Assembly: GCF_018977255.1 (NCBI RefSeq)
Contig: NW_024704743.1
Coordinates: 26,910,001-26,974,000, forward strand
Reading direction: 5' to 3'
Source: Callorhinchus milii
Taxonomy: Eukaryota
Length of the DNA stretch: 64,000 nucleotides
In this document: piece after piece, positions 5,120-64,000 of the stretch
Layout: each line of letters starts with the position of its first letter
How positions within the stretch are numbered: the stretch's first letter is position 1
Translations under genes and position numbers: made by a program
The notes under the pieces: model-generated
What the model saw: the letters and a program-made list of their open reading frames with translations, nothing else
The model's database searches: none
What the model was told of the DNA's origin: nothing

Positions 5120-6220
5120 AGATTGGTATGGATGAAGAAGCCCATCCAACCTCATCTTCACCCTACTGTTCCCCCATCAAGCTGCTTTTTAAGTGAGTTC
5201 AGTGTCCTGGTCTCTGCCACATTTTCGACAACCTATTCCAATTGTTGATTCCTCTCTCAGTAAAGAAAAACGTGCTGGTACCAGTTCTGAGGTTGCTCTT
5301 TACAACTCAAAACCAAGGTTTTTTTGTTCTTCTGTCATGATACATCCAAGATTATTGATCTGAGTTTACTTTTACAATCCTATTCGAAATTGTATACACC
5401 TTCATGAGGACCACTTGGAGTCATCTTCTCTGAAGACTGAAGAGGCCTAGCTTGTCTAGTGGTTGCTCATAGCTCATTCCTCTAACACTGGAGATTATCC
5501 TCATTGCTTTCCTCTGCATTGCCTCTAGGATCTAAACAGCCCCCTTATGTCATGGTCATTCAGAACTGATTGTAATATTTAATGTGGGGTCAGAGCACTA
5601 TACATTCTCAGAATTACATCTGGAGATCTGTGGAGTCCTGTAGCTCATTGGTTAGAGCACTCACCTTGCAAGCGAGACACCTGAGTTCAATTCCCAGCAG
5701 GACGAAACCTTGGGCAAGTTTCCTTACTCCACATGCCTAATAATAATCCCTCCAAATAAAACACAATAATAAATTGTTCATTTTCAATCCACGACTGTTT
5801 ATGAGACACTGCTGTGCGCAATTGGCTGCCGCGTTTCGGCCACAAATATACGGTCAATTCACTTTATAGCATATTCTGTGAAGCGCTTTGAGACGTCGAG
5901 AAGATGTGAAAAGCACTATATCAAATGCAAGGATTATTATTATTATTATCATTATTATTATTACTATAATCGGAACTCAATTGATTTAGCAAATTAGCCC
6001 TTGATCCTGTTTACCTTGTTTATTGCTGCCTCTCACATTGTTTTAACATAGTGAGCGACAAGTCAATTAACACCCCTAGATCTCTTTTAGCTTCCCCCTT
6101 GGCGAGTTCAATCCCATCCATAGAATATTTTTGTTTCCTATTCTTGTATCTTGTATCTTGTGGTACCTTACATTTATCAGTGTTAACCTTCGTGACTGTA
6201 GCATATTTTAAGTGCTCTTG
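5120..6220 (-). mobile_element. Old CR1 LINE 3' fragment, interrupted by a SINE
   Basis: Minus ORF 6020-6223 contains the CR1-type RT C-terminus (NTDKCKV...KRDLGVLID). The 3' part at about 5120-5620 resembles other CR1 3' ends in the window. Confidence 0.7.
5630..5965 (+). mobile_element. tRNA-Ala-derived SINE, short variant
   Basis: GTGGAGTCCTGTAGCTCATTGGTTAGAGCACTCACCTTGCAAGCGAG head through an (ATT)n tail; inserted within the CR1. Confidence 0.9.
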
Positions 6221-8329
6221 CAATAATAGTGTTTTTTAATTAAATTCTGTCAGTAAGGCATTTTAGTGTAAACATAACACGAACTTTGCTTTGGAAATAA
6301 ATCTGTAAATTTCTCCTATGGTTTTGACAAACTAATTGGTTTGATGCTACTATTTGTTTACTTGGAAATGTAAAGCAATTTTGATTTCTGATTTGTTCAC
6401 GTTATACCAGCATTATGGGGTCAAAAGTAAGATGTTTTAGCCCTAATACTTTTGAAAGGTGCGGAAGGTGACATTCTCATTACTGTTGTTGACTTGTTCT
6501 CCCTTCTTGTTCCTACAAAGCTTGTTCCAATTCTTAATTACAACAACAACAAACAACAACTTGGATTTATATAGTGCCCTCCAAGCCGGATGGCGTCTCA
6601 GAGCGCTTCACAATAGTAAAGTCAAAGTATGAAAAAGGCCTGTCAGCAAAAGGCTAATTGGAAACAGTTTTATTATTTGTTGCCTTCTTTTTTGAGTTTA
6701 CATTTTGTAAAGTGACAGCATTATGCCTAATATTTTGTGAGTGTTTCACCCACTTTATAATATATCCATTGAAGTGCTTTGAGATGTCTAAACGGTGTGA
6801 TAAAGCGCTATATCAAATCCAAGGATTATTAATATTATTAAAATCAGGAGAAAATTCCAAGTTTGATAAAAAGCCAGACTGTGGCTCGGTTGGAGCAAAA
6901 AAGCTAAAAATCATGTCCATCTTGAGAGATAGGTTTGATTTTTTTTTACCTGCAATGTGCAGCTACTGAAATAACCAATAGCATTTTCAGTATCAAGTTG
7001 CTGCTATGAATGATACAAAGAAGTTATTTGATGCCAGGGCAGTTGAGGGCATAGTTATGTCTGCAGAGACAAGACTACAGCTTTGTATTGGTTTACAACT
7101 GTCATTGGACATAGTTAGAAAGCAAAAATGCAGTATCGACTTAACTTCTTCCTTCGTTTGGATTACACGCCCAGCACTAAGTGATCCAATGCCAATCATA
7201 TATCTCCTTTACTGGGATAAATATATCACCAAATAGGATGAAAGTATTATATATATCTCTGGCCTCCCCAAAATATTGTACATGCACTGCTCCTTCAGAG
7301 ATTGACTCGGTCATATACTTCATGATTTATTCAGCAGAACAAGGAAGCTGGATAATAATTTTCAGTTAATAAAGGTTCAAAAAGAAGCAGACATTTCTAT
7401 TAATATGGAAGTGCAATACCAGCTGACATGACATGTTTTTACCAACAGTGTAGAAATCCCTATGGCTTTACAAAATGTCACACTGTGGACTACTTTTACG
7501 AGAAGTGTATTATTGTCTTAGTAGAGAATAGATGCTGGGATTCTGTCTATAGAGAAACTCTTGTTCATAACTGTAATTATCAAGGATGTGGCTCTCAAGC
7601 ATCTTGTACTGTAATTTCAAAGGTTTATTGCTTTTTCCCATTAGATTCAAAATGTCCTGAGGCAATTGCTCTGTAACACATGAGTGCCTTTTGCAGCATT
7701 CTATATGAGACACAGACCAAGGAAATTCAGCAGATGAATAATGAAATGATTGCATGTTTTGCAGCAGATGCGAAAACTTGAATTATGCTGAGCTTACATA
7801 TTGGCCTCAATAATATTGGAATTACTTTTCTTAAGGTATAACATTTATGAAGTTTCCCCGCAATATTCTGAAAATTACATGCTCTTCTTTATTTGGTTCC
7901 CAAAGCTGCACTGAAAGATAACTTGATTGAACAATGTCAGCTGCGTTGTTTCTCAATGTGTTTTTTTTCAAAAGAGAAAATAAAAACATAAAGACACATT
8001 AAATATTATTATTGTTTCTTTATTCAAATGTGACTGGATCACCCAAACACCCACATCCTCTATCATGGTTCTTGTCAAACATGTAAATAACATTAACATG
8101 CCCCCCCAAAATCTGCTTTTGTATGTAATATTCAGCGTCAAGTCACACAATGCTCTGGTACAGTCACCGCAGGGAATAATTCCCATTAGGTTTATTCTTC
8201 CAACTTTTCCTGATCTCCATGATGGATAGCACTGGAGGAGTGCAAACAACTGTGGAATTTTATCCCAGGCGGAGAAAGGCGAGGTAAAATTAGTCTCAAC
8301 ACTTCCAAAGTAAGGTGCTGTTCTTTATA

Positions 8330-18149: not shown

Positions 18150-21029
18150 AAATGTCCTCCCACCATACTGAAACCAAATGTTCATCAAATAGCTGGTGAG
18201 GCAACTCTGAAGCTTGGGGTGATAGCTGCTAGAAGGCATTACCTGGAGTGTGAGTTCATGAACACACGTTCATACACCCAACGCCTGGAATCCACCTTGA
18301 TTGGCTTGAGGTGGTCAGCAGCTTTTACTTAAGCTCTGGACCTCTAACTGGTGGAACCATCACTCAGTGGGAAGAGATGTATGTCTGAGCTGTGGGAAGA
18401 TATACATCACAATGCTCTCATGCATTTCCTGCTGAGCTGTATTGGCTACCAAGAAACTTGCAGGTAATTCCTTGTGTCTGTCATCCACAAAATGACGGTT
18501 CAAACTTGCCCTTGTTGGCTGTCGAATGACCAACCAGTAACAATCTTCTTCGGATGGGGTGGAGGGGAGATGGGGGAGGGCACGGGGGAGGTAAGTGGAG
18601 TCTCCTTGGAGCTGAACTGGTTCCAACCTCACTTGCTTGGTAACAGAATATCAGAATTGAGCCGTCTGTTACAGTCTTGGTAGTCCAGCTCCTGAGTCAG
18701 GCAGGTCTGCAGTAATCCAGGACACTGCTGATGACAGCCCAGCCAGCCTAGCTCATCGGTAAGACTTGGACGAGCAGACCAGTCACTGGGGACCGGGGCT
18801 GTTCCCACTCAGCTGTTGTTAACTGCAAGCCAAAGCCCTAATGTGTATGGTGGCCAAGTGGGAAAGCTTGCCAGTCTGTCCTTCAATCGCAACCCATACC
18901 GGTTTACATGGTTGGACTTCAACAGAACCCCATCACAGCAAAGGAAAAGGTTAAAATTACAATCTCAGAATTTAGCTTGATTGGAAAAGAGAGACAAGCA
19001 AATCAATATCTCAAATAAAAAACTCCAGGAGGCTGTGGAGCCCCTCTGCAGGGTAGATGAGGGCATGTCATATCAGTCCAATCTCCCTGGGCAGTGCTAG
19101 ATTCATTCTTCTAAATCAATATTTGGACAGAATTAATCGTGGAAGCCGAAAAAAACAGGAGCCCTGGATTCAGACAAGAGGTCAATTATTCACTGATGTA
19201 TATTAATGTTTCAGGTTTGCCCACTCATCACTACTGAACCAGAAACCAGAAGCTTTAAAAGCCGTAAAAGAGAAAAGTAGTACTGAAAAAAGTTAGTAGT
19301 AATTTAACAAATACAAGCATCGATTACATGTAAAAAGAGGATGCTGATGGATCATTGGATTATAGAGAACACAGCATAGAAGGAGGCCATTCAGCAAATC
19401 AGCATATCTTTACTCATGCTATATCCTCCCTTGAGCTAGCTACTCTAATGTCAATTATCTGGAATATGTATATATACCATGTTTAGGTTTCTGTATTCCA
19501 ATAATATTCTGTATGAAAATAACTTCTGTCCTCCCCTTAACTGTTCCAATGAACATTTGAGTTATTAACATATTGTGAAATGATGGAAAAGGAGTTAATT
19601 ACAATACATTAACACAATTTACATTTATATAGCACTTTTCATGTCAGAAGGACATCTCAAATAATCATAGACAAAACAAATACACGTGATATCTATGAAA
19701 AACTGTCATGATTAAGACTAACTTTAAAATTCTGCACAACCCTTAAATTTTAGGACTACGACTGCGAAATGTCAGGGTTCCTGGAACTGCGTAGCTTTTT
19801 GTCCATTGCTCCTGAAAGAAATGGAATGCAAACGTGTAACCTTTCATCCCACATTAGAAGTTCTAAGCAGCAAAGAACTGCAAGTCTGCTCAGTGAAGTG
19901 TACATTTACTTGGAGTTGTCATACAGTGGGCAGATCCAGGTAACCAATTTGTGTGCTTCTAATTGCTGGTGAAAATGGAACTGATGCAAACAGCTTGCAC
20001 ATCCTTCTTTTCCATTATTGCTCCGTCATCTATGTGAAAAGCGAGTTCACCAATATACCAAAAATACTAATTTCAGGGGGTGGTCGGAAGGTAGAGGCGG
20101 CATACGCACATCTGCACAATGCAAGCCTTTAACAATCCAGCCCTCAAACATTTAAAGATATATAGAAGATTACTATAATTAGTGGGAAGAACCTGACAGC
20201 TGGGTCAGTGAACAAACTGCAGCTAAATAACAAATAAGCACCAAAACGTACTGGGCTCATGGTGGGTGTGAAGAATGGGTTCTATTTTTTGATTGCTTAA
20301 AATATATTAGCTGCTGAGAATGTGAAGCAACATTACCTGTAATTGGATCAACAAGCTATTTTTTAACTTACTTCATTTTATTTTTCGCTCAACTTTCTTT
20401 CCCTCAAAGCTGTGCAATATTCCTGGCCAACAGAGCACGGAGGCAGCCTCCTCCCTGGTCTCTACCCTGTTATTAATTGCTAGGTGATGACCTCTGATTT
20501 CTGCTCAACCTCCTCATACTACGGGTATTGGTATCTCACAGCACATTGATATACAACAGCATCTCTCTAAACCATTCAAATTACTGCAATCCCATTGAAG
20601 GACAATTGAATTGTCCCTGAACCCATCACTAAATCACTTTGCAGCCCTGCCTCATGGCACACATGCAGCTGCAGAGTATTATTTGTCTCCCCTGAGACTC
20701 GATATATTATTTTGTGTCACAGGGATGAAGTTTTCTGACTGTCATACACTCGTTGTACTTAATCTTATAATAAATGTGCACAGAAAGGAAAGATGAAGAA
20801 CAAAAATGGACATGTTTACTGCGATTTCTCCAAATGCAATTACCAGTCAAATCTGAAGGGAGAGTTTATGCTGCAAACCTGACAGTAGATAAACAGGAGT
20901 TTGAATCCAGATCTTAACACACTTCAAAAATACGCATTTCTCTATAATGACACCAGCTGGCAGGCAGGCAGGCAGGGGGCAATTAAAAAAGTCATATCAA
21001 CAACATCTATACATTTCAGTGAGTAATGG

Positions 21030-31003: not shown

Positions 31004-31330
31004 AATAATAATAATAAATAATAATCCTTGCATTTGATATAGCGCTTTTCACGTCAGGAGGACGTCCCAAAGCGCTTCACAGAACACACTGTAAAGTGAA
31101 TTGACTGTATATTTGTGGGCGAACGCGGCAGCCAATTGCGCACAGCAATGTCCCAGTCGTAGATTGAAAATGACCAATTTAATTATTGTTTTTGGTTTTT
31201 TGGAGGGATTATTATTAGGCTCTGTGTGGAATAAGGAAACTTGCCCAAGGTTTCGCCCTCTGCCTGGAATTGAACTCAGGTCTCTCACTTGCAAAGCGAG
31301 TGCTCTAACCACTGAGCTACAGGACTCCAC
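31004..31330 (-). mobile_element. tRNA-Ala-derived SINE, short variant (young)
   Basis: Full length and nearly identical to 63775-64000. The tail hairpin loop is L2-like (ACGTC-CTCCT-GACGT). Confidence 0.92.
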
Positions 31331-36454: not shown

Positions 36455-36790
36455 TATAACAACAACAACTTGTATTCTTATACAACAACAACAACAACAA
36501 GATTCCATTTATAGAGCGCCTTTCACGTCGGGAGGACGTCCCAAGACGCTCTATAAATGGAAGGCGCCCTTGACACAGAATAGCTTCTTGGAGCATTTAA
36601 CAAATTAACACTCAGTATATTGGATTAAAGGAGTGGCTGTCACAATGGAATTCATGGGGTTAGATGCTGAGCCAGGAAAATGTGTATGGTCGAAGAGGTG
36701 GGTCTTAAAGTAGGATTAAGAAATAGATAATGAGGGGGCAAAGCAAAGTAATTGAGGTAGCGAGTTCTAGAGGTTATGGGCAGGGTGGTT
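36455..36790 (-). mobile_element. Old L2 3' end with a young L2 tail nested at about 36482-36562
   Basis: Two (AAC)n-led tails in series. The inner one matches the young L2 tail. Confidence 0.75.
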
Positions 36791-39170: not shown

Positions 39171-40974
39171 AAAGGGGTAGGTTCTTACAGTAGCTTGTTT
39201 GAGACTCCCATGCCTCTCAGCAGCAGGAGAATACTTTAAACTCCCGTCCACAGTACAGGTAATTAAATCTCAGTTTATTATTCCCATAAAAAATAGCTAT
39301 GAAAAAATGACAACTTCCTATTGAGGCAGGCTGCCTCTTGAATGCACACAACTGATGATTGGAAGGAAAGAACGGTTCCTTTGTCTGCTGGCTTGAAATG
39401 TATGTATTAAAATGGATTATATTTGGATATATACAGCTGATAATGTATAACAACATTTGCATGTATATTAGCACCTTTCATGTGGGGCAGAGTTTCGGAA
39501 AGCTTGTCTTTATTCTTCAGGCAGTAAAATTACTGTTGCCTATGAGGGACACTGTGAAACATCTAGGCCATGTGGAACCTGCACAGGGATCAATTGATAC
39601 TGACACTTGATACCAAGAGGAAAACATTTTCCATTCTCCAGGAACTCCTCACCATCTGAAAGCAAAAATTTACCAGAGCAGTTAACAAAAAATAAAAACC
39701 TCATTAACTCCCTTTTGGAATTAGAGTGTATAGTGTATGATTGAACTGACAGCTTTTATTTTCATCATGTGTTTATGCTTCCTCGGGTATCACTAAACAG
39801 AGACATCTCACTCCCAAGATCGTGCCCACTATCTAAGTATTGATTTGATCTCTGACTTCAAAGCAATCTGAATTTGAATCAGCTTTACTAACTAAAGAAT
39901 TAAAAAAAAGTAGTCAAAATGGTTTTGTTGCTTTCTGCTGGTTTTCCAGCTAGGACCATCCTTCCCATAAGGGTTTTGATTTGCAAGATTAACAGGAGCT
40001 GATTTAGAAAAATTCCTGTCCCCAATGACTGGTCTGTACCTCCAAAACCTGCCAAGACCAGCAGATCAGTTATCAGCAATGCTCTTCACTTGGGTAGCAT
40101 CTCTCAGCATCCAGAGCGATCAGCATAATCATAATAATAGTGGCAAGCAAACCCTTATTATGTAAACATGGTTGGCAAAGAAAAGCAGAAGCTACAGTCA
40201 ACTGAACCCATTCTGTGTGGATTAAAAAGAATAATAGGGGGATATCAACATTTATAAGGACCTTTTGTGTTCATCAAAATAACATCAAGCATAATGAAAC
40301 TTATACATTAATAAAGGTATGATCAGTCCACAATAAAGGGTTATGTTGTGTTTCAGGGCAGAGCAATGTTTGCTACAGTTATAGTTGCTGTTGGTTTCAA
40401 AGACTTCAATTGATGTAATTGCTTTCCTTTGGTTTGAGCCTCTTGTTTACGACAACAACATAAATTTACATGCAGTATGAGAATTACAACACATCATTAT
40501 TTCTGTTGTAACCCAATATTTTTTTTCAACAATTCATGCTGGAAACTTCTTATTTCCTTACTTCAATACTTTTTTTTTCTTGTGATCATTTTCAACTAGC
40601 TCTGACTATTTCTGGTCATGTCTTTATTTAAGTCATCCCCATTGTTCTTTCATCCTATTTTTGTGCTACCAGGGCGAACTGCAAAACATTGTGGAGAGAG
40701 ATAAAGGCATTTTGATGTTCTCTGACTCTTCACAAGTATTAAGCAGTCTTAACTGCTTGAGTGCCTTCAGATGAGGCAATGAGTCATATCTCCCTGCTTT
40801 GTCTGTAGGCACTAAGACTAGGAACCGAGGGTCAATCACATCATTATTGAGTCTCCCGTATTACTTTCGCAATGTCCCAAATTCTGAGTGTATCAAATCC
40901 TTCACCATTTCTTTTATGCCAGTTTCCCTATTGTCCTCAGTACCATTTTCTTCCTTTACTTTGCTATGTCTCGT

Positions 40975-41073
40975 GCAATCTCTTTCCAAATGTCCCTTTT
41001 TACCACATGCCCAACATTCCACTTCTGACGGACAGTTTGAAGCAGTTTGACCATTCTTCCCACACTTAGAACA
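40975..41073 (-). pseudogene. gag: Gag nucleocapsid, two CCHC-type zinc knuckles
   Basis: Direct translation CSKCGKNGQTASNC-PSEVE-CWACGKKGHLERDC: two C-X2-C-X4-H-X4-C motifs, the first with H replaced by Q. Confidence 0.85.
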
Positions 41074-41172
41074 TGTAGGACTACTAAATCCAACATTCAG
41101 GTTTCTTCATCCTTTACCCTTTCTTCAATCAGTGAAATTCATTTGTCCCATCAATGCTTTCGATCTTATTAA

Positions 41173-41238
41173 ATGGCAGGGCAGGCTCGATGGGCCGAAT
41201 GGCCTACTCCTTCTCCTATTTCTTATGTTCTTATGTTC
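41173..41238 (+). mobile_element. Very short CR1 3' tail inserted into gag
   Basis: GGCAGGGCAGGCTCGATGGGCCGAATGGCCTACTCCTTCTCCTATTTCTTATGTTCTTATGTTCT. Confidence 0.85.
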
Positions 41239-41714
41239 TTTCAACCCTTGCATTGGACCCTTCTTCTTGCATACTTTTTCAGGTTTTTCCTCTACTAAGA
41301 CTGCTATTTTATGCCCTTTTAACTTTTCAGCTGCCTCTCTCTGTCTGGTTTCCCATTTCATAATAATTTTCCGTCTTATCCATGTCTCATTGTGCTTGTT
41401 GTTTTCCCTATCTCAGCTATTCTCTTAGGCTGCTCGATAAAGTGGTAGAGCATGAGAAATAATTGACCTCAGCCAACTTTGTCCAAGATTTGCACCAAGA
41501 TTATTTCTTTGAAAGTTGGGATCATAGGTACGATCAAATGCACCGCAAATTGCTGAATGTAAACATTTGGATGTTCTGTTGGTTCCTGCCTACACTTATC
41601 CAAAACCTTGATCAGATCCTCCCTATCATACCTAACAGCAGCCATAATATGCTCCCTTAATTAATCTAAAGTTCATTCTTCAGCCTTTACATCCATGGGT
41701 AACGCATTGTTTGA

Positions 41715-42025
41715 AAGGTGAAAAAGGTAAGATGTGAGTATTTGTAACATTCTCATTACTGCTGTTGACTTGCTCTCACTTCTTGTTCCTATGAAACTTG
41801 TTCCAATTGTTGATTACCCTCTGAGTAAAGAAAAAATTCCTGGTATCTGTCCTGAAGTTGCTCATTACAACCCCAAACTTGTGTCCTTTTGCTTTACTGT
41901 CATGATACATCCTAAATTATTGATCTGAGTTTACTTTCACAATCCTATTTAAAATCTTCTACATCTTTATGAGGAGCCCTCTGAGTCATCTTCTCTCAAG
42001 ACTGAAGCTTGTCTAGTCGTTGCTA
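41715..42025 (-). mobile_element. CR1-like 3' fragment inserted into gag
   Basis: Similar to 5230-5470, and its left part to 6455-6540. Confidence 0.65.
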
Positions 42026-42242
42026 AAATATGTCTGGACTTTGCAGCATGCTGCTATTCACATTTTACTGAAATTAGATCACCTTTAATTCATTCTTTCT
42101 CACATCTTTTAGAATTGCTTCTTCTTTCTATATATTTATAGGCTTTTAAAACTCGAGGTTACTATTACTCAATTTCTACATCTCATTTTGTCTCAACTTC
42201 CCTACTATGCCTTTCAATCTTAGCAGTTTCCTACACTATAAA

Positions 42243-42790
42243 GCAACAACAACTTGCATTATATAGCGCCCTTCACGCTGCGTAGTATCCCAGAGCGCTT
42301 GACAGTGGCGGAGTCTGACCCCGAGCTAGGGGGAGAGGGAGGGGTTGTAAGCACAATCAAAAAAGAAGTTCTTTAGTCGTGATTTGAAAGTGGGGAAGGA
42401 GGGGGCAAGACGGAGGCATTGAGGGAGAGAGTTCCAGAGTTTTGGGGCTTAGTGGCTAAAGGCACGGCCACCGATGGTGGAAAGGAGGGGAAAAGGGACA
42501 AACAAGAGGCCAGATCCAGTCGAGAGGAGGCAGCGAGTGGTGAAGTGGGGTGGGGTAAGCAAATCGGATAGGTAGGGAGGTGTGAGGTCGGAAGGAATTT
42601 GAAAATGAGTGAGAGAATCTTGAAATTGATCCGTTCAGTAATTGGGAGCCAGTGAAACCGGGCAAGAACTGGTGTGATGCGGGTACAGAGTTTTATGTTG
42701 GTGAGAATCCGGGCTGAGGTGTTCTGAATTGGTTAAATTGTGTGTATTGTGGAGTAGGGGAGACCAACGAGGAGGCTGTTTATGATAGTG
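42243..42790 (-). mobile_element. L2 LINE 3' fragment inserted into gag
   Basis: (AAC)n tail ACTTGCATTATATAGCGCCC; antisense of ITPVLARFHWLP..INFKIL. Confidence 0.8.
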
Positions 42791-44899
42791 ATTAGCTTCA
42801 TCCATCTATAGAGTCCCAGTCTATCCCTCATTGCTCCCCTTTCTCATTGTTAAAGTGTAGATGAAACCTCGCCTAACTTGTAACATCTCCTTGAGCTTTT
42901 GAATTTCTTTTTTGGCATATAACATCTGACACAGGATCCCCTTTTCTGCTTGCCTTTGACATTGCAGCTTGTATTCTTACAGTAGCTTTCGGATCGCTGT
43001 TCTGCCTCTTTAACCATGCTATCCCTTTTCCTAAGTCTTTCTCATCCCCATACCAATCCTGTGCCTGCTTTTTCATATCGGAGGCTTCTGCCTGATAATA
43101 ATCACCACGTCCCTTCAGGCTATGCATCCTTTTCGTGCATGTTTCCATTACTTGCCGCCTATCAGCTCTTTCTTCTGCCAACATTTCTTCCAGTTCTGCT
43201 TAACCGGTTTCCGAATTTCTTGGAGTTTCTTTAAGTTCTCCTGAGTAACCAGAAATTGCTCTTGAGCAGTCACCAACTGCTCCTCAAAGGTCACCAACCA
43301 TTCCTTTGTACTGGCTAGCTTCTCTTCTCAACGGGAAGTACTGACAGATTCCTCTTTTTCTGCTTTGAGAGCACTCTTTTCCACAAGTAAAGATTTGATC
43401 CAAACTGCCTTGCTTTGATCTGTTTTCACTTTCTTTTTCTCATGTAGACTGCATGTCTGAATCAGTGCGCCACTCTCTAGTTCTCGTTAAACTGCTCCTC
43501 ATGTCTAGGGAGCTTTTTTCTCTACATAGAGTTTCATCAATTCTTCCATACTTATATACTTTATTCCTCCAATTGTACTAAACCCTTCTCACTTTGAATC
43601 TCACAATTTAGCTAAAATTCAAAACACTTTAACAATCGTTTTCACGTGTTTCAATTTTCATGATCTTGTACCCATTGAACTTCAACACTTCTCCAACACC
43701 CTGTGAGGGTGACAATTTGTCTTGAATTTCATGTGGTGAAGTATGAACTGACACAAACTCTCAAATTGCTTCAATTAGTAAATTTTAATAAAGATTAGCA
43801 AGGTTATAAATATCAACATTATACATTTTATATAATCAAATTAATGCTTGCAGCAGATTAGTACAATTCACTGCAATGAGTTGAACAGACCAATACAGTG
43901 GTTTTCGTGGAGGAACAATAGTTGATTGTAGTCTATCTCTTTCCTCGCGATTGGTAGCAGTTAGCTACTCTTTCCCCAAACTCAGCTCTTCTGATTCCAC
44001 CCCAAAATCTCTGCTTCTTTATCCCTTTTTGGTCACATAGCCAGTCTGTTCAACATGTTATTCGAAACACCAGCTGCAAACCAAAGACAATATTTAACTT
44101 TTTTGTTCTTTATTCTTCCATTTATTCTGGCCTTTGTGCATTTGCACCATATAGTCAGCCTATATGAAGTAAACATGTCCATGAGACTTTACGATTTTCT
44201 TTGGTCAGCTTAAGGCAACCCAGAATTCTGGGATTGCTTACACCCATTATAAGAATTTCAACTTGTTACCTCCAGCTAAAAGTCTCATTTTCTGAGATGT
44301 CTGATATCCATCCTCTATGTCTTCGGAACCATTGTATTCCTTAAATAGCAATTGAATTGAGGTATATTATGCATACCCATAAGCAACATCAGTCACTTGA
44401 TGATGAGTTATCTCTGAATGAGAGAACAGTTGAATCTTGCACCACTTCTGTTTTACCCAAAATTTAATCCAGATTTCTACTCCAATTTCACTAAAACATC
44501 AAAAGAAGGACTTTGCGACCAGGAAATTCATGACAGCTCTACCTTTTAGTGTCTTTCTATGCAAGTAGGTCACGTAATATTTGGTTGCTACAGACTGTTT
44601 TTCTGAATCTCAAAGATGTAGTAGTTAAAAGCTATGTGCCTTAAATTTCATTTCCACTGAGTAGGAGCTCCTAGAAGAAATTATACTTGCATTAAACATA
44701 ATTAAAATTAATAGTATAGTCAAGGATCTTCCTACTCTAGCTCACACTCACATGCAGAAATACTGGAGGGAAGAGTTTCAAGACCATTAGACCTGTGGGA
44801 TGTAAACAGTGGAATTCTTCAGTGGTCAATTAGAACTGCAATAAGAACTGTAAGAGACTTCAGAAGAACACTGGCAGGTTAGTGGATTGGAAAAATGGA

Positions 44900-45610
44900 T
44901 AGCAAATCAAACTTAATTCAGATAAATGTGCAGTAATGCACTTTGAGTGGAAGCATAATTATACACAAAATGATAAAACTTTAAAAGGAGTGAAACCACA
45001 GTGAGACCTAAGAATGAACCTATCCAACACTTTAAAAATAGAACAACAAATTGACAGAACTGTGAAAACCATAATTGGTTCTCAGGTTTTATACATTGGA
45101 GCAAAGGATATAAACACAAAGAAGTAAGGCTAAAATTGTACATATCATTGATTGGGTTGTACTTTGAGTATTGTATCTAGTTCTTGGCACTCTACTTTTG
45201 GAGAGATGCCACTGTAGGATCTTCTAAGGCAATGGAATGAGGACAAAGAAGATTCACTTGAACGATAGACAGGCACAAAGAAGATTGAGGAGACATAATA
45301 TAGGTATTCAAAATATATGGAGTAAATTAAAAAAAAACTATTTCTACTGAATGGTGAGTTGGTATCTAGTTAAGCACAAATTTAAGATAATTGCCAGAAA
45401 AAAATAAGGAACAGGATTGGAGATTAGTTTTCTATAGCGCTTTGTCAGGGTATAATAGCTTACCAGAATCTGCAATTCAAGCAGAATCCGTAATAGCTTT
45501 ATAAAGGGAGTTTGATGGATTTTTGAAAAGGTAAAATAAAGAGGTATGGGAAACTGCAAGTAAGTGGAATCTGAATGGATAACTCTTTCGTAGAGCTGGC
45601 AGGGACACTA
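44900..45610 (+). mobile_element. Old CR1 fragment
   Basis: GATAAATGTGCAGTAATGCACTTTG (DKCAVMHF), TGAGTATTGTATCTAGTTC and a CR1-type 3' end, heavily decayed. Confidence 0.6.
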
Positions 45611-46803: not shown

Positions 46804-47437
46804 TCAGTAGCCAACAGCCCCACACGTACACTGCCTGAGGGGCTGACGTGCAGGCCTCAGGAGGTGCAGCCCAGGGCAGCCCGGTGAGTAACGGCACAGA
46901 AACCAGCCTTTGTAGGTGAGGTACCAGCAGAGCTGGGCGAAGGTCGCCCCGACGATCTTCTGAGAAAAGTGGTGAAAAAAAAGGGTGGTTGACACCAGGA
47001 GAAAGCTCCAGAGAGGCAGGAGGAGGCTGGCGAGGAGGAAGGTGAGGCGGAAAGCCCCACTAGCTGGGTAGCCATGGGCTAGGTAGAGTTTGAGGATTGA
47101 GAGCTCCTCCAAGGTGACCAAGGAGGAGTACGTGAGCAGGAACGACTGGGACGAGATGCTGTAGCCTTTCCAAAGAAAGCCTTGCATGAGGCAGAAGGGC
47201 CGATCGGCCAGCTCGATGAGTAACAGTCCTTCTGGGGTCTGGTGAAAGCAAGAGCCGGTGACAGTCTCTATGAGGATGAAGGTTCGCAGGCAAGCCACAC
47301 TGAGGACAGTGCCAGCCAGCAGCCGGCTCTGGTGTCTCAGTGTGGTGAGCAAACTCCCAGAGGACAGGTAGGAGGTGAGCAGCAGGTGGCCACCGGTCAG
47401 GACACACGTCCAACTCCAGGCTGAGTCAACCAGACGC
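46804..47437 (-). CDS. FITM1: FITM1-like gene, coding exon 2 (634 nt, includes TGA stop)
   Basis: Acceptor ctctctcctccccccacag|G CGT CTG joins exon 1 in frame (182+634=816 nt, 271 aa plus stop). The protein has FIT-family motifs [45 protein letters not shown] and [28 protein letters not shown] and SAW.WTC fit FITM1 rather than FITM2. Confidence 0.95.
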
Positions 47438-48352
47438 CTGTGGGGGGAGGAGAGAGATAGAGTGTAAGAGAGGTGAGAGACAGAGGGAGAGGGAGAAGTG
47501 AAAGAGAAGGAGAGAGTGAGAGATGAGAGAGAGGAGAGAGAAAGAGATGAGAGAGGAGAGAGGGAGAGGGTGTGTGAGAGAGCGTGCATGAGAGAGAGCA
47601 TGAGAAGGAGCGAGGGAGCGTGAGAGTATGTGAGACAGAGACAAAGAGTGAGAGATGAGAGGAGAGAGTGAGAGGGAGAAAGTGTGAGAGATGGGAGAGA
47701 GAGAGAGATTGAAGGTAAGTGAGAGGAGAGAGAGAGATAGAGACAGAGAGAAAGTCAGAGAAACAGTATGAGAGAGGAAAGAATGAAATAATGAAAGAGA
47801 TAAGAGATAGAGAGAGACAGAGAGAAAGTGTGAGAGACAGAGAAAGAAAGACAGTATGAGAGACGAGAGAGAAGGAGAGTGTGAGAGAGGGGATGAGAGG
47901 GTGAGAGTGTGAGACACAGAAAGAATGTGCTTGAGACAGAGAGTGATGTGAGAAGGATTGAAACATACAAACAGACATACACCCACTTGCGCAGAAACAC
48001 AGACCCACACACATACAGACACACAGATATACACCTACACACACACAGAAGCGAGCGTGCGCACACGCACACATACACATACAGACACTCACATACATAG
48101 AAACACGCACAGAGGCATACACAGGTACACAGGCACACATGCAAGCACACACACAGACTCTCACACACACCCACACACACGTGGACACGTGGATGGACAC
48201 ACACAGACACGCACACGCAAGCACATACATACACATGTGCACACACATACACAAAAACACACACATGCACCCACATACACACACACACACACAAACAAAC
48301 ACACACATGCATGTACACACACACAAACACATATACAAACAAACACACGTAC
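47438..48352 (-). other. FITM1 intron (915 bp, GT-AG), almost entirely simple repeats
   Basis: Starts GTACGT at 48352 and ends CAG at 47438 on the minus strand. The plus strand is degenerate (GA)n over about 47440-47960 and degenerate (CA)n over about 47960-48350. Confidence 0.9.
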
Positions 48353-48534
48353 ACGTTGAAGTAGTTGCGAGGTTTGGCAAACACCACTCTGGGGCTGATC
48401 AAGTCCCCCAGGAGCGGGGTGAAGGTGACGAGGAGAGCCAGCCAGAGCTGGAAGTATCTCCTGACAAACCAGTGGCTCAGTACAGCTGCCGTCTGGTCAG
48501 TCACTACACACAGAGCAGAGTGTAACAGCTTCAT
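48353..48534 (-). CDS. FITM1: FITM1-like gene, coding exon 1 (182 nt)
   Basis: Translates [61 protein letters not shown], matching the FITM1 N-terminus as I recall it (human ...RRLYHAWLAAVVIFGPLL...NPRTIFASHGNFFNI). It ends AAC GT|gtacgt, a GT donor at 48352 (phase 2). An in-frame TAG sits directly before the ATG. Confidence 0.9.
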
Positions 48535-63774: not shown

Positions 63775-64000
63775 GTGGAGTCCTGTAGCTCAGTGGTTAG
63801 AGCACTCGCTTTGCAAGCGAGAGACCTGAGTTCAATTCCAGGCAGAGGGCGAAACCTTGGGCAAGTTTCCTTACTCCACACAGAGCCTAATAATAATCCC
63901 TCCAAAAACCAAAAACAATAATAAATTGGTCATTTTCAATCTACGACTGTTTGTGGGACATTACTGTGCGCAATTGGCTGCCGCGTTCGCCCACAAATAT
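63775..64000 (+). mobile_element. tRNA-Ala-derived SINE, short variant (cut by the window end)
   Basis: GTGGAGTCCTGTAGCTCAGTGGTTAGAGCACTCGCTTTGCAAGCGAGAGACCTGAGTTCAATTCC head and body. Confidence 0.92.

Follow-up and report, generated by a model that had tools for sequence, protein, structure and literature searches.

The LTR-like block and the gag remnant

We analysed a 64,000-nucleotide window of Callorhinchus milii, the elephant shark (GCF_018977255.1, contig NW_024704743.1, positions 26,910,001 to 26,974,000), in which a degraded long terminal repeat (LTR) retroelement lies on the minus strand (Table 1; positions are those of the window). Along that strand it comprises a single LTR-like block, a short leader and a gag gene broken by stops, frameshifts and three later insertions, followed by a short open frame, AT-rich DNA and a fragment of a dispersed repeat. 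An earlier reading of the same DNA, hereafter the original prediction, took these pieces to be one endogenous retrovirus (ERV) that had lost most of pol but retained an unusual Env, and suggested a lokiretrovirus-like or other basal lineage. The minus-strand pieces are indeed seen in translation in the order claimed; the Env and the lokiretrovirus reading did not withstand analysis.

Table 1. Features of the locus, in the order in which they are read along the minus strand.
Feature	Position	Strand	Remarks
LTR-like block, single	43718..44535	-	~818 bp; TG...CA ends; TATA-like box at 43834; ATTAAA at 43789
Expected position of the primer-binding site (PBS)	43697..43714	-	3 nt past the LTR end; begins TGT instead of TGG
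gag, N-terminal part	42800..43549	-	Starts with ATG at 43549; a short basic patch, then a long region of charged helix type (likely coiled-coil); DW motif near 42815; interrupted by stops and frameshifts
Insertion, presumably the 3' end of an L2-type long interspersed nuclear element (LINE), with (GTT)n tail	42243..42790	-	8 copies in the window (285-492 nt, 61-69% identity); very high depth; loose ends at 42244
Single-copy stretch between insertions	42026..42242	-	Expected site of the capsid N-terminal half; depth ~11
Insertion, presumably the 3' end of a CR1-type LINE (41795-42024), plus a short second repeat (41744-41817)	41715..42025	-	Supported by depth and window copies
Capsid C-terminal-like region	41239..41714	-	Motif like the major homology region (MHR) at 41588-41550; frame breaks right behind it
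Insertion, short LINE tail, orientation opposite to gag	41162..41238	+	Highest-depth bin; loose ends at 41162-41182; weak window copies
Two CCHC zinc knuckles	40975..41073	-	Start at 41073 (degenerate, Gln for His) and 41016
gag stop TAA (40863-40861) with 64 in-frame open codons behind it	40669..40863	-	Possible remnant of the pro start, without catalytic motif
AT-rich DNA where the element fades	40240..40668		No coding signal
High-copy dispersed repeat fragment	39935..40209		Contains the 'fusion peptide' reading; likely outside the element

The LTR-like block combines TG...CA ends with promoter and poly(A) signals, as would be expected of an LTR. Positions 44535 and 43718 are the ends of the best TG...CA inverted repeat (12 of 14 positions match; matched in 19 of 1000 shuffles), and the block is multi-copy, with a summed contig depth of 110-260 across 43748-44449 compared with ~10 on single-copy DNA. 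This depth sums contigs from two probably genomic runs aligned at 80% likeness and is not a copy number. The LTR that had been predicted is therefore retained as a multi-copy block, while its proposed end at 44420 gives way to likely ends at 44535 and 43718. A shorter LTR, ending near 44075 with the TGG at 44072 as PBS, was set aside in favour of the longer block, because depth, TATA-like box, ATTAAA and inverted repeat all reach ~43720-43750. No second LTR was found in the window, and paired LTRs with a target-site duplication are thus lacking; 3' truncation of the element accounts for the missing partner. The leader between LTR and gag is 170 nt long and shows no unusual folding (z -0.47).

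Contigs of a putative RNA run are nearly identical to 43769-44330, 44465-45060 and 45101-45298, the lowest end (43769) falling ~20 nt beyond the start of ATTAAA, and a second putative RNA run covers 44015-44718. The two studies end at different places, and the contigs give neither strand nor ends. An upstream transcript may end at the LTR poly(A) site near 43769. In both runs most of gag is uncovered by contigs, which is evidence in neither direction.

The coding nature of the gag remnant is supported by stop codons being depleted in three frames, which hold 5 in 228 codons (17.1 expected, p = 0.001), 2 in 118 (8.7 expected, p = 0.008) and 3 in 138 (9.6 expected, p = 0.007). A minimal-break test over 43570-42800 was equalled by just 2 of 300 shuffles; the shorter C-terminal segments were not significant (42 and 62 of 300 shuffles). 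In the N-terminal part, where depth is near single-copy, the likely start Met is not followed by Gly, and a KKKVK patch leads into the charged helix region; the frame also contains GIDWDSID, with DEA found just past a frame break. The long coiled-coil Gag that had been proposed is suggested by this charged composition (E/K/Q/R 38-56%, Pro/Gly 0-8%); heptad periodicity is weak (p = 0.52, 0.04 and 0.02 across three segments). A coiled-coil N-terminus is likely, with composition supporting it more than periodicity does. At 43407-43606 a second contig, present in both genomic runs, differs from gag here by 29 substitutions and 16 gap letters, which points to one or more related internal copies in the genome.

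Further along gag, none of the frames of the single-copy stretch 42026-42242 is depleted of stops. Behind the next insertion lies the MHR-like motif CRQEPTEHPNVYIQQF, read on the minus strand with its Q at 41588. Set against the published consensus QX3EX4-hydrophobic-X2R (PMC8278194 Table 2, in part; sources so marked are cited from the portion available), its Q, E and Y match, while the final position is Q and adjoins the frame break. The pattern QX3EX4[FY]X2[RQK] matches only twice in the six frames of the window, and this motif is one of the two. The two knuckles are the sole matches to CX2CX4[HQ]X4C in the window, and they match Pfam zf-CCHC (E 1.8e-06) and the HIV-1 nucleocapsid (E 3e-07). 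As predicted, gag therefore carries both an MHR-like capsid motif and a CCHC nucleocapsid, although the first knuckle is degenerate. Single-sequence AlphaFold modelling of the gag C-terminal frame gave a mean predicted local distance difference test (pLDDT) score of 37.9. A public gene prediction of 135 amino acids at 41051-41365, minus strand, joins two gag pieces and the inserted repeat and is likely an annotation artefact.

Beyond the gag stop

The frame that continues past the gag stop contains no stop in 64 codons (3.6 expected, p = 0.022) and resembles a read-through gag-pro junction, yet it has neither Pfam nor PDB support and lacks D[TS]G. Further downstream, the reported absence of protease and reverse transcriptase (RT) motifs was confirmed, as D[TS]G, YxDD, LPQG and CX6CC are missing from the minus frames between 40900 and 36000; the single RXKR pattern in these frames is at 36527. 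Between 40939 and 40238, where the element fades, depth drops from ~3x that of single-copy DNA to 1x. An imperfect palindrome of 54-63 nt is found at 40755-40817, just behind the gag stop.

About 0.9 kb beyond the knuckles, a minus-strand open reading frame (ORF) at 39903-40085 provides the hydrophobic reading that had been taken for a fusion peptide. The reading itself is real, but the sequence that carries it is a dispersed repeat without Env or coding signal. Summed depth around 39935-40209 is 292-2685 compared with ~10 for single-copy DNA, roughly ten times that of the LTR block. A copy is found at 18766-18865 (72% identity over 103 nt, E 2e-11; nhmmer E 2e-12), with homology spanning ~40209-39935 (local alignment score 144, compared with a best of 91 in 100 shuffles). 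No gag adjoins that copy, whose corresponding frame has stops upstream and reaches a best 15-residue hydrophobicity mean of only 0.95, compared with 1.91. In the segment itself, stops occur at chance level in all three frames and no RXKR lies upstream; neither Pfam (PF00523 included) nor the PDB gave a match, and the best Atlas match reached only 0.76, with a recognition value of 1144. PDB sequence searches with the MHR, post-gag and 'Env' frames returned a best E of 0.075.

An Env identity for 39903-40085 is therefore not supported, given its high copy number, the second copy without gag, the missing RXKR and the lack of stop depletion. The locus illustrates how a fusion peptide can be imitated by a neighbouring repeat that happens to read hydrophobic. 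Because this piece belongs to a separate repeat, an outcome that the original prediction had itself named as refuting a single provirus, the locus is best described as a 3'-truncated LTR-gag remnant and not as a pol-deleted provirus with Env. A longer copy of the same repeat is found at ~18200-18920.

Origin and lineage of the element

We consider it probable, at roughly three chances in four, that an old LTR retroelement or provirus has left its 5' part here, in the form of one LTR-like block and a broken gag, that its pol, env and 3' LTR were lost and that the supposed Env is a neighbouring repeat. An LTR element would have integrated here, and everything downstream of the gag-pro junction would have been lost by deletion, unless its family had no more than gag to begin with. 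Three LINEs would later have inserted into gag, steady point decay would have led to the present state, and relatives would persist mainly as solo LTRs. There is no sign of present coding function in the element.

Several observations weigh against this reading or against its details. The bin 44450-44683, which includes the outer 85 bp of the LTR, is without extra depth, and the 5' end of the LTR, given by the inverted repeat alone, is as such less certain. The PBS is poor, as 43697-43714 begins with TGT, can also fold into a 6-bp hairpin and agrees at 12 of 18 positions with what we take to be the tRNA-Lys PBS; the PBS-like site of the original prediction is thus not established. Depth of 2-3x single-copy persists to ~40470, beyond the gag stop. 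The ten best family-bearing Atlas matches all fall in the Retrotrans_gag family or clan (top 0.94), and the two knuckles contrast with the single knuckle of snakehead retrovirus (SnRV) and of the elephant-shark element CmiERV-I. Word-index protein searches against longer proteins confirmed none of 1040 candidates for the gag C-terminal frame, 40 for the N-terminal frame and 3 for the MHR, which is weak evidence. A phmmer search of 1.84 billion representatives gave 300 matches, and the best 150 of them comprised the locus itself, a single tandem-repeat protein and proteins with generic knuckles. Lastly, the repeat family behind the supposed Env was not named by Pfam, either in six frames of the 18.1-19.3 kb copy or in three plus frames of 39.6-40.4 kb.

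The poor PBS could suggest that the LTR-like block has no relation to the gag pieces next to it, as could the missing coding signal at 42026-42242 and the differing depths of LTR and gag. We regard this as improbable, since all pieces share a strand and follow the expected order, with a 170-nt leader between LTR and gag, stops are depleted on both sides of the insertions, and a higher copy number of LTR than of internal sequence is the usual solo-LTR pattern (bioRxiv 2024.03.25.586437, in part).

The depth persisting to ~40470 bears on a second alternative, as relatives evidently share some sequence beyond the gag stop. This raises the possibility of a non-autonomous gag-only family with the layout LTR-gag-noncoding-LTR, comparable to zebrafish BHIKHARI, that was mobilised in trans and later lost its 3' LTR here. 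Such families are known (bioRxiv 2024.03.25.586437, in part), and the missing protease motif would fit one. On the other hand, the extra depth is small, the window holds no 3' LTR and the frame remains open behind the gag stop, as it would where gag meets pro. This scenario, which we hold only tentatively, is a sub-case of the truncated LTR-gag element and differs from it in the timing of pol loss.

Regarding lineage, MHR-like motifs and CCHC knuckles also occur outside retroviruses, and a Ty3/gypsy retrotransposon that never had env has to be weighed. The capsid C-terminal region resembles Ty3/gypsy Gag (PF03732) by language-model features, the two best Atlas matches of the MHR-bearing ORF (0.94 and 0.93) being clusters with PF03732 Retrotrans_gag in 15% and 62% of their members. 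The CCHC knuckles are likewise alike, and the knuckle matches returned by the searches were generic, with Copia among them. However, the 128-129 shared features fall below the 170 typical of true members, one third of shuffled proteins also score ten out of ten, and neither Pfam nor any other hidden Markov model gave a match to a gypsy gag. The DW motif and overall layout, compared by eye, resemble CmiERV-I instead. We judge both a Ty3/gypsy remnant and a Ty3/gypsy lineage to be rather unlikely.

A snakehead-retrovirus-like lineage (clade Huo/class III) is the assignment that we propose tentatively, at somewhat less than even odds, from motifs compared by eye in an element that has no RT. SnRV and Ovex1 have a non-myristoylated Gag with a polybasic patch, coiled coil, MHR and in-frame gag-pol, with one knuckle in SnRV and none in Ovex1 (PMC2717909, in part). 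SnRV-like CmiERVs are known from the elephant shark (PMC4422223, in part), and clade Huo is present across all major vertebrate lineages (PMC6001957, in part). An SnRV-like CmiERV from scaffold 2 (PMC4422223 supplement), translated by eye, has a long coiled region, DWGELDEEA, a CKQ..E.P..F..R MHR and one knuckle. With this group the locus appears to share, again by eye, a basic patch followed by a likely coiled coil, an MHR-like motif and an open frame past the gag stop, and like SnRV and CmiERV-I it has CCHC knuckle sequence. The layout and the DW..[LI]D motif behind the coil are common to the locus and CmiERV-I, on visual inspection and not by a computed alignment. The LTR ends and PBS of the CmiERVs (PMC4422223 supplement) differ from those of the locus, which also lacks their pol and env.

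A lokiretroviral pol would show an RT in the clade sister to sampled retroviruses, a tether plus RNase H and a CGIN1-like integrase, but the locus carries no pol. What sets the lokiretroviruses invoked by the original prediction apart is where their RT is placed, their dual RNase H and their F-like Env, which has RXKR (PMC7947760, in part). One pol-deleted provirus of this kind would agree with the order of LTR, gag and hydrophobic segment and with the N-terminal coiled coil of loki Gag (bioRxiv 2024.03.25.586437, in part). The published screen was RT-based (PMC7947760, in part), so pol-less remnants such as this would have escaped it. Against this, the hydrophobic segment lies in an unrelated high-copy repeat, and the locus shows none of the signal peptide, RXKR, fusion peptide, coiled coil, transmembrane segment and PF00523 similarity of an F-like Env.

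Its Gag also differs from that of lokiretroviruses. Bik-1 Gag consists of a coiled coil, a capsid and a glycine-rich tail (bioRxiv 2024.03.25.586437, in part); the locus has two CCHC knuckles where that tail would be, whereas the loki Gags covered by the available material end without knuckles, and none of five 'CGK' places in the accessible part of the loki supplement lies in a Gag. The loki capsid motif YFQG.N.PGLEE, as given in the portion of the source at hand, was not seen at the locus by eye. The resemblance that remains, to lokiretroviruses and BHIKHARI alike, is a coiled-coil Gag N-terminus and, for BHIKHARI, gag without pol. The former is not loki-specific, being described for SnRV and Ovex1 (PMC2717909, in part) and for foamy viruses (bioRxiv 2024.03.25.586437, in part). 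In the original RT screen, none of six chondrichthyan genomes was positive, C. milii included (PMC7947760 supplement), so the statement in the original prediction that lokiretroviruses lie mainly outside cartilaginous fish was right for that screen. Our literature search, with subscription papers outside its coverage, found no report of them in this group. Given the missing F-like Env, the two knuckles and the negative genomes, we consider a loki provirus, and loki membership as a lineage, very unlikely.

Most likely, then, the locus is a genomic fossil of an ordinary kind and provides no evidence for lokiretroviruses in cartilaginous fish, in which ERV remnants are numerous; 2018 clade I and 2843 clade III RT loci have been listed from six genomes (PMC11089739 Table 2, in part). 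Since no relative was recovered (pattern searches for related loci gave 33 viral and 85 metagenome matches, none of which was confirmed), the lineage call was made by eye, and there is a small chance that the element belongs in no described class. Another basal lineage, which the original prediction also allowed, may apply. The family may already be catalogued in Repbase. A more speculative and unlikely proposal is an undescribed, deep-branching chimaera retrovirus lineage with a coiled-coil SnRV-style Gag and two CCHC knuckles, surviving mostly as solo LTRs and pol-less fragments missed by RT screens, whose LTR may also provide an upstream transcript of the host with a poly(A) site. The locus would gain importance if fuller copies had an RT outside the known clades, or inside the lokiretroviruses, whose known range would then take in cartilaginous fish. 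As it stands, it shows that RT-based screens can miss such families.

Later insertions and neighbouring features

All three insertions that had been proposed to interrupt gag are high-copy repeats, with one correction, as the edge placed at 41173 is probably at ~41162. Copies of the insertion at 41715-42025 occur at 5230-5467 (80% over 238 nt) and 6468-6541 (88% over 74 nt). A 26-nt motif of the L2 tail, the L2 and CR1 labels being our assumption, occurs five times in the window (one exact; none in 100 shuffles) and was also seen by eye in the CmiERV of scaffold-324 (PMC4422223 supplement).

Elsewhere in the window, tRNA-like sequences are found at 243-312, 2683-2756, 5634-5705, 31255-31325 and 63780-63850. 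Four of the five are Ala(TGC), and they are likely heads of short interspersed nuclear elements; an Rfam scan returned nothing but these heads. On the same strand as the element and 2.3 kb upstream of its LTR lies a two-exon membrane-protein gene (46804-47440 and ~48370-48534, minus strand), whose weak FIT match (PF10261, E 0.002, below the cutoff) makes it likely FITM-like.

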